Source of the DNA: an uncultured Halobacteriales archaeon
GTDB taxonomy: Archaea; Halobacteriota; Halobacteria; Halobacteriales; Hikarchaeaceae
DNA: 64,000 bases
Assembly: GCA_964510865.1 (NCBI GenBank)
Contig: CAZEDI010000002.1
Coordinates: 8,579-72,578, forward strand
Direction: 5' to 3'
Shown here: piece by piece, positions 38,765 through 64,000 of the stretch
Position numbering within the stretch: position 1 is the stretch's first letter
Layout of the letters: each line of letters opens with the position of its first letter
The notes under the pieces: model-generated
The model's database searches: none
Seen by the model: the letters and a program-made list of their open reading frames with translations, nothing else
Told to the model about the DNA's origin: nothing
Made by a program: the position numbers and the translations under genes

Positions 38765-40048
38765 ATGACTCTTCCTCCTGAATTTAAGGACATTGACGGA
38801 CGCATAGATTCCATCTTCAAAGATGGAGAATCTTATAGCGAAACCACTGATATCCAACTTCCAGAAACACTGCCGCCCGGGATGACTGACAGTCAGGCAG
38901 AGGAGTGGATGGAACCCATTGAAAATACAGGTGATGATTCACAAAAATACGATTTTGATCCGGTAGAACCTTTTGGGATCCACGAATTCAATGGAGAAGT
39001 GAATTCACGGTTATCAAATAATGTATTTATTGGTATTGATGGGGCCAATTTTGATGTCAAACGGGAGGAGCTTCTACTTCTAAAATCTCGTGGAGTGGGC
39101 TTCTTCTACCCATACACGGCGGAGCTCTCACGATCAAAAGTTGAGCATCCCGCTCGAGCCTTTTACATCATGAAACCGGGACTTCTACGAGACGGTTACG
39201 ACGATTACGTGGAAGTCGAAGATGAAGCTAGCCGTGCAATAGACCTTGAGGCTGTTAGAAATAAACGCTGGATGTTTCTCCGATATGATCGGGATACTAA
39301 CTCTTCTAATCCGTATATGCAAGCAATGGGTGCAAATGTGAAGATGATGCAATTATCTGAAATATGTGCTGCGGATAACGCCTCAGATCGAGCAATCGAG
39401 GAAGGGGTGGAGCCGGCAAATGTTCATTTACTTTTTGATGGGAGTCTCCCACCTAAGTCGGTTGAGCCTAATACATATGGGGCCGAATTCACTCGGTTGA
39501 TCGAAAAAGGCATTAACATATATTCTGTCGTAAAGAGACTATCCAGCTCACGATTGTTCGTTCAGCTACTAAAGGAAAAGGAGGAGATATGTAGAGGTCT
39601 CTTAGATATTGACAACGATGATCTTCAGAGCGATTATATTAATGATACAGCTTTGATCCGAGATTTACTCCAACCAGGCCAGTATACTTCCTTTATTAGG
39701 TATAAAGTAATTGGAAAAACACGAGGAGAGCATATTAACCTGCCAGAGTCTGTGATACCTGCAACAAGTTATGTGATGACTGAGAAAGAGAACATATTTC
39801 GGGTGGAATTCCCCTCATATTACTTAGATGAAAATGGGTCGCATCCGGATGCCCACGATCTGGTGCAGACATTCTTTACCCTCACACATGAGAATAATGG
39901 TGGATTACCGACACCAAATAAGTTCGCGGACAAGCTTGCTTCCTACACTTTAGCCGAAAGGAAATCTGCGAACGCAATTATCGATTCATGGGCAAGAAAT
40001 AAGTTAGGTAACCTAAAACTCAATAAAGTATACGGGGAGCCCCAATGA
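38765..40048 (+). CDS. NurA-like nuclease
   Basis: 427 aa. The ordered motifs FIGIDGANF, HLLFDGSLPP, IYSVVKRLSSS and GLPTPNKFADKLASYTLAER resemble the NurA (RNase H-like) pattern DGS ... DGSL ... K-S-S ... P-x-AD. The stop overlaps the HerA-like start (ATGA). Confidence 0.6.
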   Translation: MTLPPEFKDIDGRIDSIFKDGESYSETTDIQLPETLPPGMTDSQAEEWMEPIENTGDDSQKYDFDPVEPFGIHEFNGEVNSRLSNNVFIGIDGANFDVKREELLLLKSRGVGFFYPYTAELSRSKVEHPARAFYIMKPGLLRDGYDDYVEVEDEASRAIDLEAVRNKRWMFLRYDRDTNSSNPYMQAMGANVKMMQLSEICAADNASDRAIEEGVEPANVHLLFDGSLPPKSVEPNTYGAEFTRLIEKGINIYSVVKRLSSSRLFVQLLKEKEEICRGLLDIDNDDLQSDYINDTALIRDLLQPGQYTSFIRYKVIGKTRGEHINLPESVIPATSYVMTEKENIFRVEFPSYYLDENGSHPDAHDLVQTFFTLTHENNGGLPTPNKFADKLASYTLAERKSANAIIDSWARNKLGNLKLNKVYGEPQ

Positions 40049-41880
40049 AAGAGAATCTCCGCGAGCGACTGGATGAGGAGATTGGTCAACCCTATATTGA
40101 TATTGAGAATGGCTTTACCTTTGGACCTGAAGAGGATCTTACGTTCCTCGTTCGGCCAGAAATAAGTTCTCAAATTCTCCGTGGTGACCCATTGTTGGCA
40201 TATGATCTAAAGGATGAGCACTGGTATGGGGTTGAAGTCAAGGAGGTGCAGATCATGAAAACGTCTACCCTCGATCGTGAGCGAGATTTATATGCTATTG
40301 ATCAAGATACCTTAGTTGATAGATATTTAGAGCGGCAAGAAATGTTTGACGATCCTGCAATTATAAAAGTCGAGCCTATAGCATCATTCTCAGACGGGAC
40401 ACGTCGTGCCGCGAATAAGTGCCCTAGCAGTGCCTCGGTACTCTTACGACCTCGTCCTACCGAGGAAGAAACCATCGTAGAACACGAACCTGGCCTCGGC
40501 GAAATCCTGGGATTGCCGACAGCTGGCATCCCCCTAGGGGCGGTATCGGTTGACCAACGGGCATTCAGGGCGGCTAACGGAGATTCTGAAAATCCGTATC
40601 TGGAGTTTAAACTTGACCTCGAGCAGCTCAGTAACAAGCATGTCGTCGTATTTGGGGCGTCTGGACAAGGAAAAACCTCGTTCTTGAAACATAGTTCAAA
40701 AAGACTTGGCGCAGAAGGCTATGGTATCATCTTCTTCGACATACAGGGCGACATCATCCAAACATTATTCCATCCCGAGAGAAACCCCGACCAGCAAGAT
40801 CTCCTTGAAGAAGAATTTCATAGTGATTTCCTTGCCCAGATAAGGAGCACTCCTCAGTTGCCCGATGATGTAGAAACGAATGTTTACTTCCCTGTCACGG
40901 AGCACGTAGATGACGATGATCGTAACCGGATCAGTAATCTTTGCGATGCAGCAGGCGCAAATTTCATAGACTTCTCTTTGCGCTTTAGAAACGTGGAATC
41001 CATCGGTGAACTGGCTCACTTCATCGAAATTGCCTCTCCACAAGCTCAAGCAGCCATTGACGAAGTTATCTATAGTGATGAGGAGGTTGATCTTGATACA
41101 GTTATCCGAGAAATGGAAAACGCTACAGCTGATCGTGGCGATTTTGATGAGATAGCTATTCCAGGAATAGGTATCAATTCCCGATACTACGGAAAAACCT
41201 ACGGTTCGGCTCTGAGGGCGCTTCGACAAATTCAGAGGGCAGGGGTCTATGATGCTCGTCAGGTCGAAGAGCCCCAAATGTACGGAAATGCGGGAGAGTA
41301 CAATACCGTATATTTGGCACATCTTGATCAGATGAGTACTCGGCATATGGTTGAAAAACACATCATGGGGTACATGCGCCAGAATAAGGAACAGGTTGAC
41401 GAACCTGGGGTCTATATCGTCTTGGACGAAGCCCATGAGATAGTCCCAGCAGAGGCCACAACCGCTTCTCCAAAAGCCGTCACGGACCGATTGGTCCGAG
41501 AATTCGACAAAATGGCTAGGGAAGGTAGGAAATATAACATCAATCTCATAGTGTCGACTCATTACCCGGGAGATATTAACCAGGTCGTACAGAGCATCTG
41601 TGATACGACTGTAGTGATGGGCATATCTGAAACTGACGCTCAACGGGCAGGTGTCCCGAAGGAATACCAGAATGAAGTCAGTAATTTGGATAGAGGTTAT
41701 GCCTATATCAACACGGCTTCCTCAACCACAGCCCCGTGGACACAGGTTAGAATTCCCTCCACTGATCTTCTTCATATGGATATTAGCGAATGGGGGGTAA
41801 TCAGTGACGAGATTGTACGGAATGCGAGAGATGACGCGATTGATGATGACGAAGAAGGTTATCGCGACATGATGGAATAG
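40045..41880 (+). CDS. HerA-like (DUF87) hexameric ATPase/translocase
   Basis: N-terminal barrel-like region (RGDPLLAYDLKDEHWYGVEVKEVQI), Walker A VVFGASGQGKTS, Walker B VYIVLDEAHEIVP, then REGRKYNINLIVSTHYPGDI. 611 aa. Confidence 0.8.
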   Translation: MKENLRERLDEEIGQPYIDIENGFTFGPEEDLTFLVRPEISSQILRGDPLLAYDLKDEHWYGVEVKEVQIMKTSTLDRERDLYAIDQDTLVDRYLERQEMFDDPAIIKVEPIASFSDGTRRAANKCPSSASVLLRPRPTEEETIVEHEPGLGEILGLPTAGIPLGAVSVDQRAFRAANGDSENPYLEFKLDLEQLSNKHVVVFGASGQGKTSFLKHSSKRLGAEGYGIIFFDIQGDIIQTLFHPERNPDQQDLLEEEFHSDFLAQIRSTPQLPDDVETNVYFPVTEHVDDDDRNRISNLCDAAGANFIDFSLRFRNVESIGELAHFIEIASPQAQAAIDEVIYSDEEVDLDTVIREMENATADRGDFDEIAIPGIGINSRYYGKTYGSALRALRQIQRAGVYDARQVEEPQMYGNAGEYNTVYLAHLDQMSTRHMVEKHIMGYMRQNKEQVDEPGVYIVLDEAHEIVPAEATTASPKAVTDRLVREFDKMAREGRKYNINLIVSTHYPGDINQVVQSICDTTVVMGISETDAQRAGVPKEYQNEVSNLDRGYAYINTASSTTAPWTQVRIPSTDLLHMDISEWGVISDEIVRNARDDAIDDDEEGYRDMME

Positions 41881-41889
41881 CGTTGTCCA

Positions 41890-49992: not shown

Positions 49993-49993
49993 C

Positions 49994-50926
49994 GTGTCGA
50001 CTCAAACGCCCGAGGGCCGGGTGTATCAGGACCCCGAGCGGGTTCGCGAGCCCCACGAGGTCGACGACCCCCGGACGACGCGCGTCGAGACCGCTCTGTC
50101 GATCTGGGAACGCCTGACCGACTCCCTCGGCGGCACGCTCGGCCTGCTCGTCGTCGGGGTACTGGGCATTGCCGGGTTCGTTATTCTCTGGCAGTGGACG
50201 TCGCGCCTCCTGGTGACGCTGCTCACCAACGGCTACGTCCAGTCGGGGGCTGCCGTCGGCGTGGCCTTGCTCTCCGGGATCTACCTCGGTAGCAAGCGCA
50301 AGGAAGCCCAGCTCGAACACCAGGAGCGGCTCACGCTGGACCATCTCGAGGCCGGCATGCCCGTGCCGTATCGCGGCGAGTACGAGGCCGTGAAGGGCGG
50401 TCACGTCTTCACGCCATACAAGGGCGTCACCGGCTGGCTCACGTCGAGTTGGGAGCCCTACTCCGTCGCCGAGCTCATGGACGACCCCGCGGCCCCGGCG
50501 GCGCCGGCGAAGATCTTCCTCCCCAAACCCGCGTTCAAGCTGACCATGACCGACACCGGGCTCGTGGGCGTGATCAAGGTGCAGTGCCTGGAGTACCACC
50601 CCGGCCGTGGCGCGAATCTGCGGGCGAAACTCCCCGCGGATGGCGCCGAAGACTCCGTCGAGGCCGCTCGGCGAGAGCTGGAGAAGCAGATCGCCGAGCA
50701 CCAGGACCTCGTGGAGCAACTCGACTCCGAGCGACAGCGCCGCATGGCCGCCAACGAACGTGCCGGGAAGGCCTACGAGGACGCCCTGGAATACGTCGAT
50801 CAGGTCGTCACCACGGTCGAACCGTTGATGCGGGGGAGTTCGCAGCGCCGGAGTGAGGACGACGACGCCGGGAGCACGGCGACGGACCTGGCAGCGATCG
50901 AAGAGGAGTTGATCCATGAGGACTAG
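49994..50926 (+). CDS. Membrane-anchored protein with C-terminal coiled coil
   Basis: Two TM segments (LGLLVVGVLGIAGFVILW, AAVGVALLSGIYLG) and an acidic coiled-coil tail. GTG start. Confidence 0.55.
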   Translation: MSTQTPEGRVYQDPERVREPHEVDDPRTTRVETALSIWERLTDSLGGTLGLLVVGVLGIAGFVILWQWTSRLLVTLLTNGYVQSGAAVGVALLSGIYLGSKRKEAQLEHQERLTLDHLEAGMPVPYRGEYEAVKGGHVFTPYKGVTGWLTSSWEPYSVAELMDDPAAPAAPAKIFLPKPAFKLTMTDTGLVGVIKVQCLEYHPGRGANLRAKLPADGAEDSVEAARRELEKQIAEHQDLVEQLDSERQRRMAANERAGKAYEDALEYVDQVVTTVEPLMRGSSQRRSEDDDAGSTATDLAAIEEELIHED

Positions 50927-52613
50927 CCAGGTCGGGACGTGGCTGCTGGCGCTGGTCTTGGTCGCGGCGGTGCTGGCCGCCCCGACGCCCGTGGCCGCCC
51001 AGGAATCGAATCGGACTGCCACGGCAATCCCCACGGTCACTCCAACGGAGCCCCCGACACCGCCGGAGAACGACTCGGCGGGGACCGCGACACCGACCCC
51101 GGCACCGGGCGTCTCGGCCGGGACCGTGACGGACGCCCGGGCGGCACGCCTGGTCGTCCGCCAGCCCCATTACGTCGACAGCGACGTCGAGCGCCGGACG
51201 ACCAACGGCACGCCGGTCTACGTCGCCCGGGGCCAGGAGCTCGTGCTCCGCCCCGAGGGATTCGACTCCGAGGCAGTCGTCGACGTCGAGGTGTCGCCCA
51301 CCGGTGAGCTGGATTACGACCGCGACATGGGCGTCTATCGCTTCCGCCCGTCGGAGACCGGGACGTACACGATCTCCTTCGTGGTCCGCGAAACCGAGCT
51401 CGTCGGGAGCGCCGACTCGCGGACCGTGACCGTTCGCTACGTGGCTCGCGTCCGGGTGAGTGGCGGCCTTGACCTGATTCATCGCGCCCAATCCGAACTC
51501 GCGGGCATCCAGGAGGCTGCGGCGAACTGGCGGGAGTGGAACGCGACGGCACATGGCATCGCTGGCGAGGACGTCCCGACGCAGGCACTGATGGAGGAGG
51601 CGGCGAATCTCCTGAAGCTGCGCCATCAGCCGGTGAGCTTCCTGACGGGTAACTACACGCAGGTGCTCATGCTGATGCTGATCGGCGGCCTGGGTGGCTG
51701 GATCGTCCTCGCCCAGTTCACCGGCCTCCCCGCGCTGGCATACTTCCGGGAGCGGGCCCGGAACAGCCGCTTCAACGTCGCCGAGGCGGAAGAGGGGACG
51801 GCCAAGGAGGCCCAGGCGGAACTCGACGAACTCGACCGGCGACAGCAACCTCAGACCACGCGCCTGCACGACCTTTTCGACGATCCGCGGTGGGTGGCTG
51901 CGCTGGAGCAGGCCTACGGGCCGACGCTCGGTGACGTCGCCGAGCGGTTCCGCGCCGACGCCGTACCCTCGGTCATGGTGGCGCGATTCCTACAGATCCT
52001 GGGTGCCAACGGCTGGGTCGGCATCGAGGCCGACCACGACGCCCTCGGGATCGTGCCGGCCGATGGTGACGACGCGGAGGCAGCCGAGATCGTGTTGCGC
52101 CGCGAGACCGAGGTGCCCGGCGAGATCGCCCGCGAGCACGACGACATCCTCGCGGACCCCAAGGTGCACGACCTGACCGGCGTAACCGGCACCGAGGATC
52201 GCATCGAGCGCTTCGACTGGTCGGCCGTGTATCGCGCCTTCGACGTCGAGGAGATCGAGACGCTCCCCGAGGACATCCAGGAGGGCGAGGGCTTTGACGT
52301 CGAAGCCATTGCCGAGCGCTTCGACATCGACGTCCGGCAGTTCGACGACGTCGGGGATCTGGGGCGGTGCCTGGAGCGCACAGTGTCGTTCATCCACGAC
52401 AGTCCGACGCTGTGTGATGCCCAGGGCAACGTCGACGAGTCGGCCTACGCACTGGGTCGGCTCCAGAAACTCGCCCAGTTCATGGACGACCGCTACGACT
52501 GGCCGGAGTTCGGATTGCTCCGCGAGGAGATCCGACTGGCCCGTCAGCAACACGACCCCAACGCCGAGGTGCAACGCCTCGTCGACCGGGTGCAACAGGG
52601 GGATGGTGGATGA
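50916..52613 (+). CDS. Secreted/membrane protein with signal peptide, T/P-rich linker and internal TM
   Basis: Signal peptide MRTSQVGTWLLALVLVAAVLAAPTPVAAQ, TPTEPPTPP linker, TM LMLMLIGGLGGWIVLAQF and an acidic C-terminal domain. 11-nt overlap with the upstream gene. Confidence 0.6.
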   Translation: MRTSQVGTWLLALVLVAAVLAAPTPVAAQESNRTATAIPTVTPTEPPTPPENDSAGTATPTPAPGVSAGTVTDARAARLVVRQPHYVDSDVERRTTNGTPVYVARGQELVLRPEGFDSEAVVDVEVSPTGELDYDRDMGVYRFRPSETGTYTISFVVRETELVGSADSRTVTVRYVARVRVSGGLDLIHRAQSELAGIQEAAANWREWNATAHGIAGEDVPTQALMEEAANLLKLRHQPVSFLTGNYTQVLMLMLIGGLGGWIVLAQFTGLPALAYFRERARNSRFNVAEAEEGTAKEAQAELDELDRRQQPQTTRLHDLFDDPRWVAALEQAYGPTLGDVAERFRADAVPSVMVARFLQILGANGWVGIEADHDALGIVPADGDDAEAAEIVLRRETEVPGEIAREHDDILADPKVHDLTGVTGTEDRIERFDWSAVYRAFDVEEIETLPEDIQEGEGFDVEAIAERFDIDVRQFDDVGDLGRCLERTVSFIHDSPTLCDAQGNVDESAYALGRLQKLAQFMDDRYDWPEFGLLREEIRLARQQHDPNAEVQRLVDRVQQGDGG

Positions 52614-54460
52614 ACGCAATCCTCCAGGCATCGATCGACCTGGACGCCACCGGGCCCTCGCCCGGCCAGCGCGCAATCGGCTGGGGTGTCGCGATCCTGC
52701 TGGTCCTTGGGCTTGTGGTCCTGTTCTGGCGGTCGCGCTACGCCGGCCTGCCCCGCGAACACGCCCGTCGCGTCTCCGCGTTTCGCCAGGCCAAAGCCGC
52801 CGCCAGACTCCGGCAAGCCCGGTTTCGCAGCGCCGCCGCGCTCCGAGACGGCACGGCCACGATCCAGGGCCTGTTCGACGGCGAGGCGCCCGAACGCCCC
52901 TCGACGCGAACCGCGCTGCGGACCGCCAGTGGCGAGCTCCAGACCCAGCTTGCCCCACACCTCGCGCGACTGCCGCTGGTGGTCCGGCGCTGGCTGGCAC
53001 TCGCGGCATGGATCGCCGTTTTCGGGACGCTCGCCGTCGGGACGGCCCTGATCATGCGAGGCCTCGAGTCCGGCCGTGGCGTCGACCTCGCCTGGTTCGT
53101 CGGCGGACTCACGTCGTCGACACGGGTACTGCTGGACGCCGCTGTCGGGCTCGTGGTCGCGTTCCCCGGCGGGGAGGTCCTCTGGGCCCTGGTCTTCTCC
53201 GGCGGCGTCGTGGCGGCGACGTGGCTCTATCAGCACTGGTACGTGCTGGCAGCACTGCTCGGCGCCGGTGCGGCCGTGATCTGGACGCTGGATCGCCGAG
53301 TCGACGCGCCCACCGAGCGGCTGTACTACCACCGCCTGGACCTCCTGGTGTTGGCTGGTAGCGCTACGCTGGCGGTGTGGGTCGCCGGAGTCTTCCCCGT
53401 GGCCCTGGCGCGAGTCCTGGGCGCCCCGGAGCTCGGCGCGACGGCCGGGGTGATCCTGGCCGGTGTCGTCGCGCTAGGCTGTCTCCTGCTCGGTGGCTGG
53501 CGCCTCTGGGGGCGGGTCCGATCGGTCGCGACCCACCACGCCGATGCGACACGACCAGTCCTGTGGTATCTCGTCTCCCGACGTCTGTTCGGGGGGTTTG
53601 CGTTGCTGGCGATCCCTTACGGCCTGGTCTACTTCGGCGTCGGGCTGACCAAACTCCCGCAGGTGATTCGCGCCTGGTTCCGGGCGCCGCCTGCGATTCA
53701 ACTCGCCACCCTCGCGATCGCGGCCCTGCTCTTCGGGCTCTTGGCCTACGAACTCCGGGAGTCCTGGGGCGCGATCCGCGCTGGCCTGGCCGAGAGCGCC
53801 GCCGATCAAGAGCTCCGAATGGCGGCCTGGGCCTACGGTCTGCCGTCGCTGGCCGTGATCGCGACGTATACGGTCGCGACCCCGGTCCTGCAGGCCCCGG
53901 TCGTTGCCGGGGTCCTGGCGGTCAGCGTCGGGCTCGCGGGCACTCGCGTGGCCACCGGCCTGCGGGCGTTGCAATACCGCGTCGAGATCGGGAGTCGCGA
54001 CGAGGCCGCCCAGCGCGTCACGGTCGAGGCAGCCGTCCTCGAGGTCGGAGGCGAGGAGCACTACTACGTCCGGGTGAACGGCACCGAGGAGTTGCTCGCA
54101 CCCGATCGCGAGCAAGCGGTGGCGACGGCCCAGGAGATCGGCGCCGCGCTGTTCGACGCCGGGGAGATCCCCCCGACGCTGCCGAGTGCCTATTTCGACG
54201 TCGCCGAGCGCTACGGGATCGTGGACTACGACGACGTCACGACCAAGGAACTGGAGAAGGCGGCGAAGCAGCTGTATCACGCACTCCGGAGCGACGGTCC
54301 TGCAGTGGACCGCGAGATCGTCGAAGACGCGCTGTCGGACGTCCCCGAGCCCGTACGTGCGGTGCGTCTACAGACCGCGGTCAATCGCGGGAATATCAGG
54401 GTGTTGCGCCACGGCGATCGCGACAGGTTCGTGCTACGAAACGATCCGCGGGCTCGATAA
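52610..54460 (+). CDS. Polytopic (about 10-11 TM) membrane protein with soluble C-terminal domain (VirB6/CedA-like role candidate)
   Basis: 616 aa. ATGA overlap with the upstream gene. Many hydrophobic helices are followed by an acidic domain of about 150 aa. Confidence 0.65.
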   Translation: MNAILQASIDLDATGPSPGQRAIGWGVAILLVLGLVVLFWRSRYAGLPREHARRVSAFRQAKAAARLRQARFRSAAALRDGTATIQGLFDGEAPERPSTRTALRTASGELQTQLAPHLARLPLVVRRWLALAAWIAVFGTLAVGTALIMRGLESGRGVDLAWFVGGLTSSTRVLLDAAVGLVVAFPGGEVLWALVFSGGVVAATWLYQHWYVLAALLGAGAAVIWTLDRRVDAPTERLYYHRLDLLVLAGSATLAVWVAGVFPVALARVLGAPELGATAGVILAGVVALGCLLLGGWRLWGRVRSVATHHADATRPVLWYLVSRRLFGGFALLAIPYGLVYFGVGLTKLPQVIRAWFRAPPAIQLATLAIAALLFGLLAYELRESWGAIRAGLAESAADQELRMAAWAYGLPSLAVIATYTVATPVLQAPVVAGVLAVSVGLAGTRVATGLRALQYRVEIGSRDEAAQRVTVEAAVLEVGGEEHYYVRVNGTEELLAPDREQAVATAQEIGAALFDAGEIPPTLPSAYFDVAERYGIVDYDDVTTKELEKAAKQLYHALRSDGPAVDREIVEDALSDVPEPVRAVRLQTAVNRGNIRVLRHGDRDRFVLRNDPRAR

Positions 54461-54658: not shown

Positions 54659-56947
54659 TCACTCGGCTTCGATCGCTGCCTCAGTGGCGTCGTCGAGGTA
54701 TTTCCGGCCTAACTGGGTGAATGAGCTGTCGAGATAGACCTTCTCGTCGTTGCGCTGGCTGGTTTCGAGCGGCCAGTCCGCGGCGTCCGCAGCTCGAGTC
54801 CCAAAGCGGACTCGCTTGCCATGATCGTCGAAGTCCCACGGATCCTTGTCGTGCGCCCGGAGAAAGGCGTTGAACGCGGACTGAATGTCGGCTTTAGTCG
54901 TGTAGTCGCTACTCGGCTGGAGACATTGGTGGACGAATGCGGCGACGGGCGAGGTCTGAGGATCAGCCCGGTCGGCGCTGTCGTTGGGGACCTGCACGCC
55001 GATCGTCAGCTCGGGTGGGATTTCGTCGGGCCAGTCCACACTCTCGACGTCAGCGGGCCGCCGGAGTTCCTCGGTCCGCCCCAGCGAGAGGTCCCTCATT
55101 GTGTGCAAGCACTCGGTACAGAGGGCGTACGGCCGACCCTTCGGCCGGTACAGCTCTGTGGACCCACAGAGATCATTCTCACAAGTCTCGATCGGCGAGA
55201 AGTACTTCGCCCGGGAACGCCAGCCGTTGTCATCGACGTCCTTGTCCTTGTGGTGGTAGGAGGGCGGGGCATACTGCACGGGACTGATATATTCGATCTC
55301 CTTCTTGTCGATCGCAGGCTGTACCTGCCCGACGATCCCAGCCTTCCCCCGTTCCGGGGTTAACGTGCCGTAGAAGCTATCGACCTTTGCGTTCGCAGTC
55401 CACTCGAAGACTTTGCCGATGATATTGCGATTCCCTCCGTAAGCCACGTACCGGTTGAAGTTCTTCCGGACGGAGATGTGCAGGTCACTCGGCCACTGAG
55501 TATCGCCGAGGAAGTGAACCCCGTAATGGCGGTTCTCCCGCTGAATTGTGGTCAAACGACTCCCGATTGTCTCCTGGATTGACGCGAGGACGTCGTCGTC
55601 CTTCTGTCGGCCCTTGTGGGGCGTGATTTTCCAGAGCTCCCGCATGCACAGGACGGCCTCGGGAGCTCCAAACAGTTGTTGGCGTTCGGTCAGAATCGTG
55701 TCGATGATATGCGCGACGGCGATCAACCGGGCCAGGTTCTCGTCCTCGTTGAATAATGCCTGGGAGAAGACCGTCACCGTCTCGGTGTCCAAGAAGAGGT
55801 TACGCCAGTCGATCGTGTACTCCGACTCTTGGGTGCGTATGAACCCGATGTCTTGCAAATTCCGGAGGACTCCGACCGCGTTTTCCTTCGTTTTTGGCTG
55901 GAGTTCATCGCGCTCCCGGATCGCGTCGGCGATGTCCTTCAGCGACCAGTCGTCGCGATGCTCGTTAACGTCGCGGTATGCCTGTCTGACGGTGTTCTGT
56001 TCTTGATCGGAGATGTTGGCTCCGAGAAGCGATACCAACAGAGCCTCCGAGAGTTCTGAGGCGGGCGCGACGTATGGCCGAACGACGAACTCCTCGCCTT
56101 GGACGTGGTAGGGGAGCCGGCGGTTGGTCAACCCTGGGACGAGCGGGACCAGGATCTCGATCGTGGGTCGGCCGTACCCCTCGCCGCTCGCGAAGTCCGG
56201 CGGCAGGTTCATCTCCTGACGGATCCGCCGGAGCGGTTGCTGCTGTTGGGGGACGTCGTAGTACCAGTTCTCCCCGTCACGAAGTCCGACGGGGTCGATG
56301 AGTTTGAAATCCCGTCCCTCCCGGAAGTTCTGCTGGTAGAAATCCTCCGCCTCGATGTCGAGCCCTGTGGATTTGCCGTTCCCAGTCGGTCCGAAAAACA
56401 GCGTCTTGAGTGTCCCCGCCTGATCAGCAACAACCTCTACAGGGTCGCCCAGATCCATCCCCCATTCCTGGAGGTGCTCGCCAAGCTTCAGTGTAACCCC
56501 GACGGCATCTGCCCGGTTCCGCAGTTGATCCTCGACAAGGCCCTTGGCCTCCGCGATCGCGACGAGCGAGCGGTAGGCGTCCCGGACCAGTTCCCTGGAG
56601 CCTGGGTCTCGACCCGTGAACCCCCGGGGTTCGCCGTCCAGGAACCGATCGAGCGCGACGTAATCAAACGCGCCCCCGGCCTCGCCCTCGTAGTCGAGGA
56701 GTGGGCGGCCGCCCGCCCGGCGGAGCAGGGTCACGAGCGGCTGGCGCTGCCCGATGCCCTCGCGACAGGCTCGCTCGATGAGGTGGTAGTACTCGGCACC
56801 GCCTGATTCGTGCGGATCGCCGCCCCGGCCCAGGGCCCGCGAACATCGCTCGATGGTCTCGCGGATCGCGTCCTGGCGGGTCCAGTGGTCTCGCTTGGCC
56901 TGTTCGGCTTGTCCATGTTCGACGACGTCGCGTGCGTCCTGAGACAT
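54659..56947 (-). CDS. Large P-loop ATPase, VirB4/TrbE-like candidate
   Basis: 762 aa. Walker A FFGPTGNGKSTG. AVLCMRELWKI sits where VirB4 proteins carry hhhhDEAW. C-terminal Cys cluster CENDLCGS...CTEC. It is the last gene of the minus-strand operon after small TM proteins. Confidence 0.7.
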   Translation of the reverse strand: MSQDARDVVEHGQAEQAKRDHWTRQDAIRETIERCSRALGRGGDPHESGGAEYYHLIERACREGIGQRQPLVTLLRRAGGRPLLDYEGEAGGAFDYVALDRFLDGEPRGFTGRDPGSRELVRDAYRSLVAIAEAKGLVEDQLRNRADAVGVTLKLGEHLQEWGMDLGDPVEVVADQAGTLKTLFFGPTGNGKSTGLDIEAEDFYQQNFREGRDFKLIDPVGLRDGENWYYDVPQQQQPLRRIRQEMNLPPDFASGEGYGRPTIEILVPLVPGLTNRRLPYHVQGEEFVVRPYVAPASELSEALLVSLLGANISDQEQNTVRQAYRDVNEHRDDWSLKDIADAIRERDELQPKTKENAVGVLRNLQDIGFIRTQESEYTIDWRNLFLDTETVTVFSQALFNEDENLARLIAVAHIIDTILTERQQLFGAPEAVLCMRELWKITPHKGRQKDDDVLASIQETIGSRLTTIQRENRHYGVHFLGDTQWPSDLHISVRKNFNRYVAYGGNRNIIGKVFEWTANAKVDSFYGTLTPERGKAGIVGQVQPAIDKKEIEYISPVQYAPPSYHHKDKDVDDNGWRSRAKYFSPIETCENDLCGSTELYRPKGRPYALCTECLHTMRDLSLGRTEELRRPADVESVDWPDEIPPELTIGVQVPNDSADRADPQTSPVAAFVHQCLQPSSDYTTKADIQSAFNAFLRAHDKDPWDFDDHGKRVRFGTRAADAADWPLETSQRNDEKVYLDSSFTQLGRKYLDDATEAAIEAE

Positions 56948-56950
56948 GAG

Positions 56951-57544
56951 TTAGTCGGCTATCGTCCGGTGGGCCGTCGCCGGGAGATCGACGGGCGTGG
57001 TCTCGGGCTCGGCCAGCGGGTCGGGATCCGGAGGCGCATCGAGGTCGCGCTTCAGCTGGGCATGGAGCACGCCCACGCGGTACTCGACGAGTCCGCATAG
57101 TTCGCTCCAGGCGTCCCGGGCGCCGGTCACCTCGTCGCTACCGGGAATGCCCACCAGGACGACGGGTAACCCGGCGTGCTGGCGTTGAAACTCCCGGATC
57201 CCGGTCGCGATCGAGGCGGCGTTGCGGATCTGCGGGCCCAGCTGGCCGTGTTTGAGATGACAGCCGCTGTAGGCACAGGTGCACAGTGGCTCGTGGCGGG
57301 GCTCGTCGTACGGACTCGCGCTGACATCCGCGCCGGGGCGGGGTTTGTCTGCCTCGCGAGCCAGGTAGGATAGCAGGAAGTCCTGATAGCCGTCGTCGCG
57401 CCGGAGGACGAGATCGCGCTCGGCGCGGATCGCCCGGAGGTGGCGCCGTGCCCACTCCTTCACGTCGGCATCGAGACTCGGCCGCCGGAGCTCCCGCTGG
57501 ACGTCGTCATGAAGTCTGTCGATGTACTGATAGCGCCGCTGCAT
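56951..57544 (-). CDS. Hypothetical soluble protein
   Basis: Start at ATG 57544 (MQRRYQYIDRLHDD...), overlapping the upstream stop (TGATG). The ORF-track N-terminal extension is Arg/Pro-rich. Confidence 0.5.
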   Translation of the reverse strand: MQRRYQYIDRLHDDVQRELRRPSLDADVKEWARRHLRAIRAERDLVLRRDDGYQDFLLSYLAREADKPRPGADVSASPYDEPRHEPLCTCAYSGCHLKHGQLGPQIRNAASIATGIREFQRQHAGLPVVLVGIPGSDEVTGARDAWSELCGLVEYRVGVLHAQLKRDLDAPPDPDPLAEPETTPVDLPATAHRTIAD

Positions 57545-57786
57545 CAAGCCCGCACCTCCTGATCCGGGCGGTTGACCAGAAACCAGAGCGTTCCGACGAA
57601 CAGGATCCCCGCCGCGGGGGTGTGGTGCCCGGTCGCGAGCAGTCCCAACGCGACGACGAACAGGAGGACGCGAACCGCCGTGGTCTGGGCGAACAGCAGC
57701 TTCGCGGCGAGGTCCTCGTTCCACCAGACCAGTAGCGCGGCGCCCGAGACCGCCGCAGCCAGCACGATCAGTGCCGTTCTGTTCAT
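57544..57786 (-). CDS. Small hydrophobic protein (VirB3-like position)
   Basis: ATG 57786 (MNRTALIVLAAAVSGAALLVWW...). 80 aa with 2-3 hydrophobic segments. ATGA overlap with the upstream gene. Confidence 0.5.
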   Translation of the reverse strand: MNRTALIVLAAAVSGAALLVWWNEDLAAKLLFAQTTAVRVLLFVVALGLLATGHHTPAAGILFVGTLWFLVNRPDQEVRA

Positions 57787-58010
57787 CCATCCCCCTCGCG
57801 TCGGAGCATGGGCTTGCCGTGGCGCAGGCGGTCGTTGAGCCGGCCGCCGAGGACGTAGGCGAGGTATGCGAACACGACGATTGCGACGAGCGTGAGAACG
57901 GCGCCGAGGGCGGCACCCCCGAGCGTCGGGGCGAACGCCAGCAGCGCGACGACGATCACGAGGTAGACCACAACTCCGGCCACGCCCACGGGTTTCGGGA
58001 TCGTGACCAC
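57783..58010 (-). CDS. Small two-helix hydrophobic protein (VirB2/pilin-like position)
   Basis: 75 aa. A hairpin of two long hydrophobic helices, then a basic tail. GTG start. Confidence 0.5.
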   Translation of the reverse strand: MVTIPKPVGVAGVVVYLVIVVALLAFAPTLGGAALGAVLTLVAIVVFAYLAYVLGGRLNDRLRHGKPMLRREGDG

Positions 58011-58909: not shown

Positions 58910-59049
58910 AACACGGTCACCGTGGCTTCACAGATCGGACACTGCAGCACCGTGCGATTCGACTGTGAGAGCGCGAGGACGGGCGGGACGCCACACTCGG
59001 TATTCCCGATCTCCTCGAGGAGCGCTCGGACCCGCTCGCGATCGATCAC
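58906..59049 (-). CDS. Small Cys-containing protein (47 aa)
   Basis: GTG 59049 overlaps the upstream stop (GTGA). Sequence (M)IDRERVRALLEEIGNTECG...LQCPICEATVTVL. Confidence 0.3.
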   Translation of the reverse strand: MIDRERVRALLEEIGNTECGVPPVLALSQSNRTVLQCPICEATVTVL

Positions 59050-59348
59050 GGGTCGACCTCCCAGATCCAGAACCGGCGATTCCAGATATCGCTCGTCGTC
59101 TGGCGAATGTCGTCTGCCAGGTGGATCGAGATCACGATGCCCGCGATCGCCGCGACCAGGGCCATGCCACTCGACAGCGCGGCCACGACCAGCGCGCCGC
59201 CGATCACGATCAGGAGGAGTTGCCAGATCCTGTCGAGAGGTGACTGGCGTATGTGCCGTCGAAACCAGTCCACGACGTACTGCGGGATCGGCGTCGGGAC
59301 GTGATACGGGGGCGTGAGTCGTGCCCAGAGCCACTCGAGTGCAGCCAT
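59046..59348 (-). CDS. Small membrane protein
   Basis: ATG 59348 (MAALEWLWARL...). Hydrophobic core LLLIVIGGALVVAALSSGMALVAAIAGIVISI. Confidence 0.45.
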   Translation of the reverse strand: MAALEWLWARLTPPYHVPTPIPQYVVDWFRRHIRQSPLDRIWQLLLIVIGGALVVAALSSGMALVAAIAGIVISIHLADDIRQTTSDIWNRRFWIWEVDP

Positions 59349-59350
59349 GG

Positions 59351-59710
59351 TCAGGCGCCGAATCCCTCCGAGCGGACGTCCCAGAGCGGCCAATTCCCCG
59401 TCTCGAGGGGCCAGCGCCGGTTCACGGCAGGGATGAACCGCAGCAGGGCGATCGGGAAGGCGATCGCGAAAAACGCCAGCGCGACGGCCGTGAGCAGCGT
59501 AGCTGAGGCGATGATCATGACCGCCGTGAGGGCGATCACACCCGTGAGGTGGCCCGTTCTCGGCGCAAAACCCAATCCTCGTGGAATTGTGTCCCGCGCC
59601 CAGACCAACGTCGAGACGATCGATGGCGGGAGCAAGTCACCGAGCGTGACGGTCGTCGCGGTCACACGGAGGTTCGCGAGTGTCCCGGTGACCTGGCTGC
59701 GCAGGCCCAT
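59351..59710 (-). CDS. Small membrane protein
   Basis: 119 aa with TM segment VIALTAVMIIASATLLTAVALAFFAIAFPIALL. Confidence 0.45.
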   Translation of the reverse strand: MGLRSQVTGTLANLRVTATTVTLGDLLPPSIVSTLVWARDTIPRGLGFAPRTGHLTGVIALTAVMIIASATLLTAVALAFFAIAFPIALLRFIPAVNRRWPLETGNWPLWDVRSEGFGA

Positions 59711-60198: not shown

Positions 60199-60450
60199 TC
60201 ACCCCATTGACCGCTGCGGGATCGCCTGGAACGAGCCGTCACCCGTGACGGCGTAGTTGCGATTCTCCGCACTCCAGTTGGTCCAGGCGCGGAACCAGGT
60301 CGCGACCGTCCCGCCGGAGTCGAGCCCCTCCGAACCCGTCAGCAGCTGCCAGAGTACGTCCAGCAGCATCCAGAGGAGGCCGACCAACAGCAGGATGAAC
60401 CCGATGACGAAACCCAGCAGGTAGCCCCACAGGAAGGCGGCGATCCGCAT
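60199..60450 (-). CDS. Small two-TM membrane protein
   Basis: ATG 60450 (MRIAAFLWGYLLGFVIGFILLLVGLLWMLLDVLW...). GTG 60474 is the alternative start. Confidence 0.45.
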   Translation of the reverse strand: MRIAAFLWGYLLGFVIGFILLLVGLLWMLLDVLWQLLTGSEGLDSGGTVATWFRAWTNWSAENRNYAVTGDGSFQAIPQRSMG

Positions 60451-60542
60451 GAGGGCCTCCCCGCGCTTGCCCACGGCTCACTCACCTCCCGGCCGCGGGA
60501 CCTGGTCACGGTCACGCCGAGTGGTGCTGGCGCCGGCGGGCA

Positions 60543-61664
60543 TCACGCCACCCCGGACCGTCGCGCTGCGGGTGCGCCGGCGAGGAGCCCCAGGCTCGCG
60601 CCGGCAAGCCCGTCGAACAGGCCACCGCTCCACAGCACTGGGATCGAGTTCGAGATGCCGACCCGGGTGTACTCCCAGAACATCGTGGTGAGCCCGGCGT
60701 TGGCGACGAGCTCGACGTCGACCGCGTCGGCGTCGTCGAAGGAGTCTCCGAGGTTGAACACGATCGCCGTCTCGCCGCCGACGTCCTGCACGACGCCGTG
60801 GGTCGTGTCATCGTCGACGCTGTCCGGCGCGGCCTCGCTGAAGATCGGCACCGGGACCGTGGTGTCGTCCGTCGAGACGATCGCGGCCATGCGCGGGCCC
60901 AGCCGGGAGAGCTGGCTGAGTGACTCTTCGTCCTCGGCGTCCTCGGGCGTGGCGTCGAAGTCGTCGACGACGTCGGTGTCGGAGGCCACGATCACCACGT
61001 CGGTGTCCGAGCCGTTGACCGCGACGTCGTCGTCGCCGGTGCGCTGGATGCGCGTGAAGTCATCCGCGCCGAAGCTACCGATCGAGAAGTTGATTCCGGC
61101 GACGCTGAACTCGGTGTCGACGACTTCGGCAATGCCGTCGTCGTCGGTGTCGTTGGATTCCACGTTCTCGACGGCCGTCGAGTTATCCGACTCGATGTAG
61201 GCCTGGAACACGGTTTCGTTGTTCGGATCCGCGCCGGTGTCGTTGACCATCGTGACGTCGATGGAGACGTTGTCGTTGATCGCTCGCTCGAGATCGGCCA
61301 GGTCGCCGTGGTTGATCGACACGTTGAAGATGCCGTCGTTGTCCGTCGAATTCCAGTCCACCAGGTCCGCACTGGCGTTGGTGTAGACGACGGTCCCCGT
61401 GTCGTTGTGGGCCATGGTGACCTCTGAGGAGTTACTATCCGCCTGGTAGGACAGCACGGTCGCCGTCGAATCGTTCGCGGCGAAACTGTGATTCGCCCCG
61501 ACCGTGGTGCCGTCCTGGAGTTCCGTGCCGGTCGTGACGGCTGCATCGAGCGTGCCGTCGTTGACCGTCGGCGGTGCCGCGCCGGCCCCGCCGAACGCCG
61601 CGCCCATGACCATGACGGTCGCGAGCACGGCGGCGAGCAGTTTCTTGGATCGCGTTGATCGCAT
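60543..61664 (-). CDS. Secreted acidic surface protein with many N-x-S/T sequons and a C-terminal hydrophobic anchor
   Basis: Signal peptide MRSTRSKKLLAAVLATVMVMGAAFGGAGA. The body is D/T/N-rich with repeated NxS/T. The C-terminus is GLAGASLGLLAGAPAARRSG. Confidence 0.65.
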   Translation of the reverse strand: MRSTRSKKLLAAVLATVMVMGAAFGGAGAAPPTVNDGTLDAAVTTGTELQDGTTVGANHSFAANDSTATVLSYQADSNSSEVTMAHNDTGTVVYTNASADLVDWNSTDNDGIFNVSINHGDLADLERAINDNVSIDVTMVNDTGADPNNETVFQAYIESDNSTAVENVESNDTDDDGIAEVVDTEFSVAGINFSIGSFGADDFTRIQRTGDDDVAVNGSDTDVVIVASDTDVVDDFDATPEDAEDEESLSQLSRLGPRMAAIVSTDDTTVPVPIFSEAAPDSVDDDTTHGVVQDVGGETAIVFNLGDSFDDADAVDVELVANAGLTTMFWEYTRVGISNSIPVLWSGGLFDGLAGASLGLLAGAPAARRSGVA

Positions 61665-61788: not shown

Positions 61789-62502
61789 TCACAGCGATCC
61801 CCCCGTGTGGAACCCCAGCGACCGGCGAATCCCGAGGGAGAACGCCGTCAGGGAGAATCCAAACTGGTTGTGACGCCACCAGTGGTCCCGGCCGTCAGCA
61901 CCGGCCATGGTCCAGGGGTTGTAGACCGTCCCCGGCGCCAGGTCGGCCTCCAGGCCGTTCGCGAGCCAGGCGTCGAGCTCGCCGTGGAGGTCCTCGACAT
62001 CGAACAACGAGCCCGTCTCTGTCGTTGCCGAGTAGTGGTGCCAGGGACTGATTACCCGGAGTTTCGGGTGGTCGCCATCCAGCGTCGGGGTGGCTGTCCA
62101 GCCCCGTAGCCAGTGGTATATTGATGCGGCGACGCCCCGGACGTCGCCCGTGTTCTTATCAACAAACGTATATATTGGCTCGCGGTCGCCGTGGTGTGAA
62201 TCGTAGGATGTGACCCCGGTTTGGTGCGTATAGGCCGCGAAGTACACGCAGACGTCGGTGTCGTAGTCCTGCGAGCGGGCGACCCAGCCATACAAGCCGA
62301 AGAACTTCTCGCGATCCTCCTGGGCCATGACCAGCCGGGGTCGATAGCGCTCCAGGCGATCCTGGTCGAACTCCAGCGACACGTGGGCTGGCTGGGCGTC
62401 GGGATGGTCAGCGACAGCAGGCGAACTGGCGATCGCGAGGCCGGCGCCGAGGCTCCCGGCCCCGGCCACGGAGCGGAGAAACGCTCGCCGCGTCGGCGTC
62501 AC
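61789..62502 (-). CDS. Tat-exported protein of unknown function
   Basis: Twin-arginine signal TRRAFLRSVAGAGSLGAGLAIASS. GTG start overlaps the stop of the S8 protease gene (GTGA). Confidence 0.6.
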   Translation of the reverse strand: MTPTRRAFLRSVAGAGSLGAGLAIASSPAVADHPDAQPAHVSLEFDQDRLERYRPRLVMAQEDREKFFGLYGWVARSQDYDTDVCVYFAAYTHQTGVTSYDSHHGDREPIYTFVDKNTGDVRGVAASIYHWLRGWTATPTLDGDHPKLRVISPWHHYSATTETGSLFDVEDLHGELDAWLANGLEADLAPGTVYNPWTMAGADGRDHWWRHNQFGFSLTAFSLGIRRSLGFHTGGSL

Positions 62503-64000
62503 GACCCCAGGCCTCCCAGCCAGCCCTCGGGCTCGAACGCCCGGTAGTAGGCGTCCCGCTGCTCGGCGGCAGCAGTCATGGCCTCGGCCTGGCTCGTCTC
62601 GGGGACCGTCCCGTCGGCCAGGTTGTCCCCGGCGATCATCCCGGCGCCGGCCTCCACGGCGGCGGCGTTGGGCACGAAACGAGCGGTCGCGAGCACGGCG
62701 GCGTGCACCCGGGAGTGATTCCAGCCCGCCAGCGTGCTATTCGCGGCCAGTGCCAGGGCGAGGTTACCGGTCACGATCGGCGCCCCCATCGAGGTCCCCG
62801 ACAGCGTGGAGTTACTGAGGAAGCCCTCCGTCGAGGCGGTCTTCGCGGTGATCTTGAAGCCCGGCGCCACCACGTCGACGTCGGCGCTGCGGCTCTCCAG
62901 GTCCGAGGCGTCCGTCGCGCCCGTATCGGGGCCGGTCTGGCTGAAGTAGGCGCTCCAGGCCGAGCCCGGCGCCGAGCCATTCGTCGCGCCGACTGTAATC
63001 ACGGGCGCGTAGTCCCCGGGCGAGGCGATCCCGGGTGAACGCGTTGCCCGGCTGTTGCCGGCCGCAACCACGACCGCACTGACGCCCTGCTCGTGGGCGT
63101 AGTCGATCGCGTCCGTGAGGGGCTGACTCCAGAGCGGCGAGCCCAGGCTCATCGAGATGAGATCGACGTCCTGGTCTGCGGCGTACCGGATCGCCGCCGC
63201 GATATCCGCCGTGCTGCCCGAGCCGTCGTCTGCAAGCGCTTTCAGGACCAAGAGGTCGGAGTCGGGCGCCATGCCGTCCAGCGCGTCGGTCGAGGCGTTG
63301 GCCGCGATCGCAGCGCTGACCCAGGTGCCGTGGCCGTCGCCATCGGCAATCGCGTCGAAATCGCCGGCCGTCGCGTTGACCGATTCGCCGGTGATGAACG
63401 ACTTGCTCGCGTTGTCGATGCGGATCGAACTGCCGACCGAGCCGTTACCGAAGAGCTGGCCGTCAGCCGTGTTCGTCCCCGTGTCGATGGCGGCGATCGT
63501 GATCCCGGAGCCGGTCGCCGAGACGTTGCTGGCTCCCGTGGCGTCCCGCGAAACCGAGAGATCCGACGCGTTGACGTCCCCATCGAAGGCCAGGCCCTCG
63601 GTCGGGAACTCGGGATCATCGAACGCGAAGAGCCCCTGCTTGGGTGGGTCGAACTCCCCCGCCGTCAGCGGCGAGGTCACGGGATCGACGTCGAGCAGGT
63701 AGTTCGGGTCGATCCGCTCGACGTAGGATCGTTCCGAGAGCAGCGTCGAGAAGGGCGTCGGCAAGCTGATCCCGAAGACCGTCCGGGGGCGGATCTGGCT
63801 CCGAGGGGCTGCCACGACCGCAGTCCCGGAGTCGTTGCGAAGATCGATCAACTGGCGATCCCCGGAGGCGTTCGCCCAGTCCTGGAGTGCCGTGGGCGCA
63901 GTCTCGCCGGCCTCGTAGCTCACGATAAACGAGGGATTGCCGTCGTAGGTCTGGAGATCGGGCGTCGGGGGGTCGTCGTCCCCCAGCGAGAGCGCCGCCG
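62499..64000 (-). CDS. Subtilisin-like serine protease (peptidase S8), 5' end outside the window
   Basis: Catalytic triad motifs AAIDTGTN (D), GHGTWVSAAIA (H) and SGTSMGAPIVTG (S). The reading frame stays open upstream of GTG 63923 to position 64000, and no signal peptide is seen yet, so the gene is truncated by the window. Confidence 0.85.
   Translation of the reverse strand, partial: AALSLGDDDPPTPDLQTYDGNPSFIVSYEAGETAPTALQDWANASGDRQLIDLRNDSGTAVVAAPRSQIRPRTVFGISLPTPFSTLLSERSYVERIDPNYLLDVDPVTSPLTAGEFDPPKQGLFAFDDPEFPTEGLAFDGDVNASDLSVSRDATGASNVSATGSGITIAAIDTGTNTADGQLFGNGSVGSSIRIDNASKSFITGESVNATAGDFDAIADGDGHGTWVSAAIAANASTDALDGMAPDSDLLVLKALADDGSGSTADIAAAIRYAADQDVDLISMSLGSPLWSQPLTDAIDYAHEQGVSAVVVAAGNSRATRSPGIASPGDYAPVITVGATNGSAPGSAWSAYFSQTGPDTGATDASDLESRSADVDVVAPGFKITAKTASTEGFLSNSTLSGTSMGAPIVTGNLALALAANSTLAGWNHSRVHAAVLATARFVPNAAAVEAGAGMIAGDNLADGTVPETSQAEAMTAAAEQRDAYYRAFEPEGWLGGLGS

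Follow-up and report, generated by a model that had tools for sequence, protein, structure and literature searches.

A conserved four-gene module with a divergent FtsK-HerA-superfamily ATPase in a pR1SE-like haloarchaeal element, a candidate DNA translocase

Four consecutive genes on the minus strand of a contig from an uncultured Halobacteriales archaeon raise the question of whether a haloarchaeal element carries a secretion operon of the bacterial VirB type or a different machine built from an ATPase and small membrane proteins. The stretch analysed, here called the window, comprises 64,000 nucleotides (assembly GCA_964510865.1, contig CAZEDI010000002.1, positions 8,579 to 72,578 of the forward strand). 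Read along the minus strand, the genes encode a 75-residue membrane hairpin (protein A), an 80-residue membrane protein (protein B), a 197-residue protein (protein C) and a 762-residue ATPase, a string that the initial annotation likened to the pilin VirB2, VirB3 and the ATPase VirB4 of bacterial type IV secretion systems (T4SS). We conclude that the four genes are not a recognisable bacterial-style VirB2-VirB3-VirB4 secretion operon, and that the genes around them identify a pR1SE-like haloarchaeal element related to the group named apHPVs. On balance we favour, with measured confidence, the view that they form the DNA-translocase module of this element, a membrane-anchored motor that would load plasmid DNA into vesicles.

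The four open reading frames (ORFs) are present in the order and with the sizes and positions given in the initial annotation, and all four protein sequences also occur, with exact identity, as independent gene calls in an NCBI-derived protein collection. The junctions read from the sequence are as tight as had been claimed, with a 4-nt overlap between A and B (ATGA), a 1-nt overlap between B and C (TGATG) and a 3-nt gap between C and the ATPase (TAA, ctc, ATG). Upstream, a gene for a 298-residue protein ends 2 nt before protein A begins (TAG, cc, GTG). The GC content around the four genes is 62-70%, and their relatives are haloarchaeal. Searches of Pfam, PHROGs, NCBIfam and PDB sequences gave no significant match for the four proteins or for six of their neighbours.

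Relatives of the ATPase are confined to haloarchaea and hypersaline metagenomes, where they form 47 clusters at 90% identity with lengths of 564-789 residues, most of them 690-790; a single weak Pox_D5 match is the only Pfam domain found in these clusters, and a tblastn search of phage genomes with the ATPase returned no match. The family is present, in the same synteny, on four circular plasmids of 39-76 kb from Halomontanus rarus, Salinigranum rubrum, Natrinema pallidum (pNPA70) and Natronorubrum daqingense. Fifteen related plasmid, genome and metagenome loci have enough flanking sequence for synteny to be compared. The full string upstream of the ATPase was recovered automatically in 12 of these as well as in the window, and consists of a secreted protein of ~300 residues, a hairpin of 64-77 residues, a protein of 80-96 residues with two or three hydrophobic segments, a soluble protein of 156-202 residues, and the ATPase. 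In loci L006 and L014 the soluble protein was missed by the automatic procedure and is present in the ORF listing, the L006 sequence then being aligned with the family; in locus L017 the 80-96-residue and soluble proteins are fused. Because the string is kept across related loci, we conclude that it is a conserved operon-like module and not a chance arrangement.

The 762-residue protein belongs to the FtsK-HerA superfamily, as does VirB4. Its AlphaFold model, built from a 46-sequence alignment, has a predicted local distance difference test score (pLDDT) of 89.4 and, together with the alignment, divides the protein into an N-terminal part made of helices, a P-loop core (about residues 140 to 560) into which a further helical domain is inserted, a Cys4 ribbon and, at the C-terminus, an α/β domain. 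When this model is compared with the PDB by Foldseek, HerA is found first (7wrx, E 4e-12; 4d2i), followed by HerA-containing defence complexes; HerA or complexes containing it are named in 46 of the best 50 matches, the remainder being unnamed 'bacterial protein' entries, TrwB (rank 47, E 3.5e-7) and DndH-C. No entry named VirB4 is among these 50. In a library of viral models the ATPase is matched best by HerA-like proteins of phages, by a putative ATPase from the haloarchaeal virus PH1 (E 4e-7, TM-score of 0.50 normalised by target length) and by a phage 'conjugal transfer protein', with A32-type ATPases weaker. The family profile, searched against PDB sequences, finds only a HerA/DUF87 chain and FtsK, aligned through the segment RENRH...DTQxPSDL. 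A Pfam scan of each of the 46 members matched Pox_D5 in 25, FtsK_SpoIIIE in 22, DUF87 in 18 and zinc ribbons in 13, the FtsK_SpoIIIE and DUF87 matches being weak and the latter sub-threshold; distant relatives of ~500 residues score above the DUF87 cut-off. Neither CagE_TrbE_VirB nor a TraG-type family is among the matches listed for the 46 relatives (25 of 58 families), and the window ATPase itself has no Pfam match to CagE_TrbE_VirB.

Equation of this protein with VirB4 thus receives no specific support: HerA is the best structural match, no VirB4-type N-terminal domain is among the Pfam matches listed, and the domain order differs, the core beginning near residue 140, with Walker A at residue 186 of 762, and not in the C-terminal half. 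What the window ATPase does share with VirB4, TrbE and CedB is the FtsK-HerA P-loop core with its Walker A motif, catalytic Glu, Arg motif and sensor Gln. Membership of the VirB4/HerA-FtsK clade, on which the initial annotation had staked its proposal, therefore holds but is too weak a test to discriminate. Two further parts of the protein lie beyond the core. The Cys4 zinc ribbon is present in only part of the family. The C-terminal domain resembles Pox_D5 (best E 2e-6 among the 46 members) and may bind DNA. Similar domains also occur as short separate proteins of 160-200 residues (P0145, P0154, P0155, P0157, P0158 and P0172), one of which carries an N-terminal HNH endonuclease domain; this stand-alone occurrence, with its one HNH fusion, fits a putative role in binding nucleic acid.

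The active site departs from the superfamily pattern at Walker B. The Walker A motif GPTGNGKS is present as annotated, at residues 186-193. For Walker B, a VirB4 protein would be expected to have hhhhDE(A)(W/H), and the initial annotation had pointed to an Arg in place of the Asp in the sequence LCMRELW. This proves correct. LCMRELW spans residues 433-439, with R436 at the end of a strand predicted by AlphaFold at 430-435. In an hhalign comparison of the ATPase family with the canonical HerA encoded elsewhere in the window (40045..41880), AVLCMRELWKITP pairs with VYIVLDEAHEIVP and QRENRHYGVHFLGDTQWPSDL with AREGRKYNINLIVSTHYPGDI, so that AVLCMRELW lies opposite VYIVLDEAH and R436 corresponds to the D of LDEAHE. 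A second canonical ATPase of the window, of the DUF87 type (28314..30749), gives the same register by hhalign: its LLVVEEIH lies opposite VLCMRELW, RE being equivalent to the EE of VEEIHE.

Residue counts were made over the best 150 of 175 profile matches, which are cluster representatives at 50% identity and have diverged to ~20% identity. Position 436 is Arg in 107 of 123 sequences and otherwise Pro, Ser, Gly, Asn, Lys, His, Cys and, once, Asp. The neighbouring Glu437 is kept in 121/123, Lys192 in 91/92, Arg473 in 116/125 and Gln484 in 125/126; the Arg motif and sensor region align, in the profile search, with REGRK...SSQRPSEL of the solved HerA/DUF87 protein and with ATQRPS of FtsK. Position 482, at the tip of the sensor-1 strand, is Asp in 120/126, whereas canonical relatives have Ala, Ser or Leu there and the sole member with a canonical DE has Ala. 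Judged from the alignment, the Arg-for-Asp replacement at Walker B is a hallmark of the clade and is paired with a conserved sensor-1 Asp. We suggest that Asp482 may have taken over the Mg2+-positioning role of the missing Walker B Asp. A literature search for deviant Walker B motifs in HerA/FtsK proteins returned nothing relevant.

The nature of the element follows from the genes around the module. pR1SE elements reportedly go back to work by Erdmann et al. in 2017. Elements of this kind were named apHPVs by Lücking, Alarcón-Schumacher and Erdmann in 2023 (PMC10818511), who describe a cluster 1 of ORF6, the S8 peptidase ORF7, the NEP1-like ORF8, and ORF9, and a cluster 2 of ORF17, 21, 23, 24 and 25 that ends with ORF25, and who call an element 'complete' when it matches at least 5/6 marker hidden Markov models (HMMs). 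As a reference true apHPV we used that of Natronorubrum daqingense, CP019329 (locus L005). What the window and L005 share at the BLAST level (tblastn) is limited to the S8 peptidase and to proteins in the ORF8/9 positions, the 237-residue protein of the window matching both ORF8 and ORF9 positions; cluster 1 is thus the only part recognisable by BLAST. Large proteins at the ORF6 position are found in related loci, and ORF6 would fall beyond the end of the window. The 298-residue protein has homologues in 12 related loci (tblastn, E 1e-30 to 1e-46). On the other side of the module lies a triple of 310, 565 and 616-residue proteins. The 310-residue family aligns with a 332-residue protein of L005 in a position taken as that of ORF21 (hhalign 82%, E 1e-5), and the 565 and 616-residue families match the positional analogues of ORF23 and ORF24 in L005 neither by BLASTP nor by hhalign. 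The window element thus resembles the apHPVs in its S8 peptidase, ORF8/9-type and ORF21-like proteins, with an ORF6-like protein in related loci, set in a haloarchaeal plasmid backbone, and differs from them in the order of its second cluster and in the extra protein C before the ATPase. From these comparisons, together with that of the ATPase below, we regard it as probably a divergent sister lineage of the apHPVs with a full second module, and not as a remnant.

Homologues of the 565 and 616-residue proteins were found in 12 related loci, and in 11 of these they are encoded after the ATPase and on its strand, L022 being the exception. Compared with L001-L004, the window and L022 have the triple in inverted orientation with respect to the ATPase. 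In the window the next gene after the ATPase stop is the convergent 616-residue gene, and the intergenic region between them (54461-54658) has two short inverted repeats and is otherwise unremarkable. An AAA-family ATPase and a VWA-domain partner follow the ATPase in L001-L003 and are absent at that position in the window.

For ORF25, structural similarity has been described to VirB4, TrwB, HerA and the packaging NTPase B204 of STIV2; it is reported to be absent from vesicles, and was proposed to recruit the plasmid into them (PMC10818511). In true apHPVs two small transmembrane (TM) proteins are encoded directly upstream of ORF25, and in the window, too, such a pair precedes the large FtsK-HerA ATPase. 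The window ATPase, although <25% identical to the ORF25 type, pairs with the 818-residue ORF25-type ATPase of L005 by BLASTP (E 0.002) across the RE and TQ motifs, AVLCMRELWKITPHK being aligned with RVCIEIRELKNIAPSK and LGDTQWPSDL with LGSTQKWNDV. ORF25-type proteins of ~820 residues were also retrieved at ~E 1e-8 by the ATPase family profile from 1.84 billion representatives. An hhhhRE Walker B and a TQ sensor are common to both types. The ORF25-type ATPases (L005:4354-6810, minus; P0176, P0180 and P0186) deviate in Walker A as well, which reads [AG]xPRxGKDST and has Asp at the canonical Ser/Thr position. They thus combine GKD with a Walker B of the form IRELK and the sensor STQ, as against GKS, RE and DTQ in the window clade. 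An acidic Mg2+ ligand may therefore have moved off the Walker B strand in both lineages, to the sensor-1 strand here and to the P-loop in ORF25-type proteins. Already published are the type of element and the resemblance of ORF25-type ATPases to HerA and VirB4 (PMC10818511). A complete alternative module in 'incomplete' elements, the A, B and C partners, the Pox_D5-like domain and the RE/DTQ or RE/GKD signature were found neither in that paper, whose text contains neither 'Walker' nor 'transmembrane', nor by a targeted literature search, the original pR1SE paper lying outside this comparison.

Proteins A and B have the hydrophobic character attributed to them. In protein A the two segments are seen by hydropathy and in the AlphaFold model (helices 10-29 and 32-64, pLDDT 69.6), the first beginning at residue 10 after a short N-terminal stretch. 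The loop between them is uncharged, of Thr/Ser/Gly type, and the C-terminal tail is basic (GGRLNDRLRHGKPMLRR); the loop has no K, R, D or E in 13/13 syntenic homologues, and the tail has 1-8 K/R. From this charge pattern and the positive-inside rule, both ends would be cytoplasmic. VirB2-type bacterial pilins have basic residues in the inter-helix loop and, in most cases, a signal peptide, so that the charge pattern of protein A is the opposite of theirs. The family comprises 18 clusters of 64-75 residues, all unannotated; at E<=1 these 18 members match generic TM families, and no TrbC/VirB2-type family is among the matches listed (25 of 33 families). Foldseek gives six PDB matches for the hairpin model, all with E>6 and none a pilin, in a search whose power is low for a 75-residue hairpin of pLDDT ~70. 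The hairpins that the initial annotation looked for are present, but hairpins as such discriminate poorly.

In protein B there are two strong hydrophobic segments and a weaker third, and its relatives have three; the basic loop carries a family motif, FPDATxRWFxR. No VirB3 family is among the matches listed for 14 members at E<=1 (25 of 29 families), nor is any other Pfam match convincing. Protein C and the ATPase have no predicted TM segment by hydropathy, as expected for the soluble protein that C was taken to be. Protein C has no match in Pfam, PHROGs or NCBIfam, and a word-indexed homologue search found only itself, its relatives being collected from the syntenic loci. An alignment of 14 homologues has invariant R83, C88, C90, C95 and H123 (EPLCTCxxxxCxLKxGxL ... 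HxG), of which the CCCH residues are likely, from their conservation, to form a metal site. In locus L017 (4366-4977; metagenome contig SDGW01004878) the N-terminal TM helix of protein B with its motif, FPEATKRW, is fused in frame to protein C, possibly as an assembly or deletion artefact. The fusion suggests that protein C lies at the membrane beside B and hints that the two interact; protein C may serve as an adaptor that links the ATPase to the membrane proteins.

In the mechanism that we propose, the 762-residue protein would be a ring-forming pump for double-stranded DNA of the FtsK/HerA type, perhaps hexameric, with no membrane segment of its own. Its Pox_D5-like domain and zinc ribbon would recognise the element DNA. 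Protein A, through its basic cytoplasmic tail, protein B, whose three TM helices are accompanied by a basic loop on the cytoplasmic side, and protein C, soluble and of CCCH type, would tether the pump to the membrane. There the S8 peptidase, the ORF8/9-like protein and the proteins of 298, 310, 565 and 616 residues would assemble as the vesicle proteins of the element, and the motor would load plasmid DNA into the budding plasmid vesicle. In its active site the Walker A Lys and Ser, Glu437, the Arg-finger motif and the sensor Gln are retained, with Arg436 in place of Asp and Asp482 as a new conserved residue. Tethering is consistent with the lack of TM segments in the ATPase and protein C, the basic cytoplasmic segments exposed by A and B, the B-C fusion in L017, and the two small TM proteins that also precede ORF25 in true apHPVs; vesicle loading is suggested by the genomic context and by the published proposal for ORF25.

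Several points weigh against this mechanism. Vesicle transfer has been demonstrated experimentally for pR1SE only, and three plasmids that carry the ATPase family, CP019330, CP026314 and CP040639, are listed as 'incomplete' in Table S3 of PMC10818511, with 3/6 marker HMMs, so that to assume a vesicle life style for this lineage is to extrapolate. The lumen of a vesicle that is still budding communicates with the cytoplasm, and the need for a membrane-anchored pump is therefore not obvious. DNA binding by the C-terminal domain is drawn from a Pfam name and from analogy with related domains. The placing of R436 and D482 is read from the alignment and predicted strands, and in ATPases of the ORF25 type position 482 is occupied by Ser, so that Asp482 is not a universal substitute for the Walker B Asp.

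The proposed motor has three rivals. The likeness to VirB2-VirB3-VirB4 stands as far as the ATPase superfamily and the small membrane hairpins are concerned, and fails where a specific link to VirB2, VirB3 or VirB4 was sought in profiles and folds. Something looser could nevertheless be imagined, namely a minimal conjugation-type apparatus of the T4SS, Ced or Ted kind (PMC9905601), with A as a VirB2/CedA1-like pilin, B as a VirB3-like protein, the ATPase as a VirB4/CedB analogue and the 616-residue protein as a VirB6/CedA analogue, passing DNA from cell to cell through a channel or pilus. The small hydrophobic proteins encoded just upstream, their order before an FtsK-HerA ATPase, conserved in the window lineage and in true apHPVs alike, and a conserved polytopic protein with at least eight TM segments, accompanied by several secreted proteins, would all suit such an apparatus, as would TrwB and the phage 'conjugal transfer protein' among the structural matches of the ATPase and the T2SS/T4SS-like similarities reported for ORF23 and ORF25 (PMC10818511). 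Divergence can carry short membrane proteins beyond the reach of searches, and CedA1, a pilin of archaea, has no cleaved signal peptide, so that neither a failed search nor the lack of such a peptide in protein A would disqualify the idea. Yet specific tests of it are all negative or uninformative. Beside the missing VirB2 and VirB3 families, the 616-residue family has no TrbL/VirB6 profile match at E<=1; the fold matches of the hairpin include no pilin, and its charges run the wrong way; HerA scores far above any T4SS ATPase; and the 197-residue gene stands between protein B and the ATPase, the only fusion seen joining B to C and not to the ATPase. Neither a relaxase nor a VirD4 appeared in the module of related loci, and pR1SE is reported to spread without cell contact (PMC10818511). 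We consider a conjugation-type apparatus unlikely, though it is the rival to be taken most seriously.

The structural matches, headed as they are by HerA from repair and defence complexes, could also mean that the ATPase is plasmid cargo, a HerA-type helicase for DNA repair or anti-phage defence like those of HerA-NurA, SIR2-HerA or DUF4297-HerA, and a canonical NurA-HerA pair does lie elsewhere in the window. HerA and the window ATPase share an aligned REGRK-type Arg motif and (S/T)Q sensor. However, no NurA, SIR2, DUF4297 or other nuclease adjoins the window ATPase, whose fixed partners are three small proteins and apHPV structural genes; members of the family occur only in the conserved backbone of a single type of haloarchaeal element; and the helical N-terminal region of the model, the zinc ribbon and the Pox_D5-like domain, like the Arg at Walker B (HerA has Asp/Glu) and the Asp at the sensor position, set it apart. 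A repair or defence function therefore seems very improbable and was rejected for want of a partner nuclease. Nor does the loss of the Mg2+-positioning Asp, together with the deviant GKD Walker A of the ORF25-type relatives, readily make the protein a dead enzyme or a nucleotide-binding scaffold. Lys192, Glu437, Arg473 and Gln484 are conserved across relatives at ~20% identity, which argues for a working active site, and a compensating Asp is conserved, as D482 here and in the GKD of the ORF25 type. In ATPases of the PilT/VirB11 class the catalytic Glu is preceded by Gly, and these enzymes hydrolyse ATP. We regard a scaffold without motor function as quite unlikely, and a pseudo-enzyme reading of R436 was rejected since the rest of the catalytic set is conserved.

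A DNA-translocase module finds parallels in two other systems. With FtsK and SpoIIIE the window ATPase shares an alignable P-loop and an ATQRPS-type sensor, with the weak family matches noted above, and in concept the design of a double-stranded DNA pump that is associated with the membrane and recognises DNA through a C-terminal domain, in FtsK the gamma domain. It differs from them at Walker B and has no N-terminal TM domain, so that attachment would have to come from separate small proteins. The PRD1 packaging vertex is built of the P9 ATPase with P6, P20 and P22. There, as with STIV2 B204, the similarity lies in an FtsK-HerA-type ATPase accompanied by one small soluble and two small membrane proteins, a parallel whose PRD1 side we offer as a lead only. 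The window ATPase is, however, three to four times larger and has extra domains, A32-type ATPases score much worse against it than HerA, and the element has no capsid genes.

Coordinates of the module, of motifs in its ATPase and of other features are collected in the table.

Table. Features of the window, with positions counted from its first nucleotide.
Feature	Position	Strand	Remarks
Protein A, 75 residues	57783..58010	minus	ORF, GTG start; membrane helical hairpin
Protein B, 80 residues	57544..57786	minus	ORF; N-terminal TM helix, basic amphipathic loop, second TM hairpin
Protein C, 197 residues, soluble	56951..57544	minus	ORF; putative CCCH metal site
FtsK-HerA-superfamily ATPase, 762 residues	54659..56947	minus	ORF, family alignment, AlphaFold, Foldseek
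ATPase: Walker A GPTGNGKS, G186-S193	56369..56392	minus	G186, G191, K192 and S193 invariant in 46 sequences
ATPase: Walker B position, R436-E437 (MRELW)	55637..55642	minus	Arg for canonical Asp; catalytic Glu kept
ATPase: sensor-1 strand tip, D482-T483-Q484 (GDTQ)	55496..55504	minus	after R470/R473, RENRH arginine-finger-type motif
ATPase: Cys4 zinc ribbon, C589, C594, C610, C613	55109..55183	minus	alignment columns 720-760; AlphaFold strands 607-629
ATPase: C-terminal α/β Pox_D5-like domain, ~residues 660-762	54662..54970	minus	Pox_D5 (PF03288)
298-residue protein, N-terminal signal or anchor segment	58013..58909	minus	always directly upstream of protein A
115-residue small membrane protein, C-terminal DIWNxxFW motif	59046..59393	minus	ORF, tblastn
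119-residue small membrane protein	59351..59710	minus	ORF, tblastn
91-residue membrane protein, cluster 1-type	60199..60474	minus	tblastn
373-residue protein, cluster 1-type	60543..61664	minus	tblastn
237-residue protein, homologue of ORF8/ORF9-position (NEP1-like) proteins	61789..62502	minus	tblastn
S8 peptidase (subtilase)	62499..63923	minus	Peptidase_S8, E 2e-36
Triple: 310 residues (TM), 565 residues (signal segment and one TM), 616 residues (at least 8 TM)	49994..54460	plus	tblastn synteny, TM counts
Tyrosine integrase	27241-28317	minus	
DUF87/HerA/TraG-P-loop ATPase, 811 residues	28314-30749	minus	canonical VEEIHE Walker B; overlaps integrase
DUF4326 protein	33146-33604	minus	
855-residue protein	33951-36518	minus	no Pfam match
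Cdc6/Orc1	37368-38366	minus	
NurA	38765-40048		low-GC island
HerA, canonical	40045-41880		low-GC island; adjoins NurA
TRM-like methyltransferase	41890-42900		low-GC island
Y-family DNA polymerase	42973-44196		low-GC island
GH67 alpha-glucuronidase	5618-7708		
YcaO	10615-12342		
MatE transporter	22588-24069		
GH10 xylanase	25518-26804		

The remainder of the window is of mixed character. A second block resembling a mobile element lies on the minus strand at 27241-38366, running from the tyrosine integrase to Cdc6/Orc1 and holding several unannotated ORFs as well; it may correspond to the plasmid transfer cluster of VirB4/VirD4 type described for haloarchaea in PMC13532300. It is followed at 38000-50000 by a low-GC island (41-52%, compared with ~60-70% in the flanks), which contains the NurA-HerA pair and probably consists of acquired cargo or defence genes. 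The first 27,000 nucleotides (1-27000) hold ordinary chromosomal or megaplasmid genes, from which we conclude that the apHPV-like element sits on a larger replicon with metabolic cargo.

pR1SE-like elements stand at the border between plasmids and viruses. For the step by which their DNA enters vesicles, the locus described here offers a conserved four-protein candidate, in which an ATPase is joined by a soluble, putatively metal-binding adaptor and a pair of small membrane proteins, and suggests that elements earlier dismissed as remnants carry a complete alternative module. It is possible, and we put it forward tentatively, that the 'incomplete' pR1SE-like plasmids are in fact complete and form a second lineage, transmitted by vesicles or through a channel and equipped with a pump of its own, and that this pump and ORF25 represent an unrecognised branch of the FtsK-HerA superfamily in which the Walker B Asp has become Arg and the acidic ligand has moved to DTQ or GKD. 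Such conserved rewiring, RE with DTQ or RE with GKD, may provide a sequence signature by which further elements of this kind could be found.

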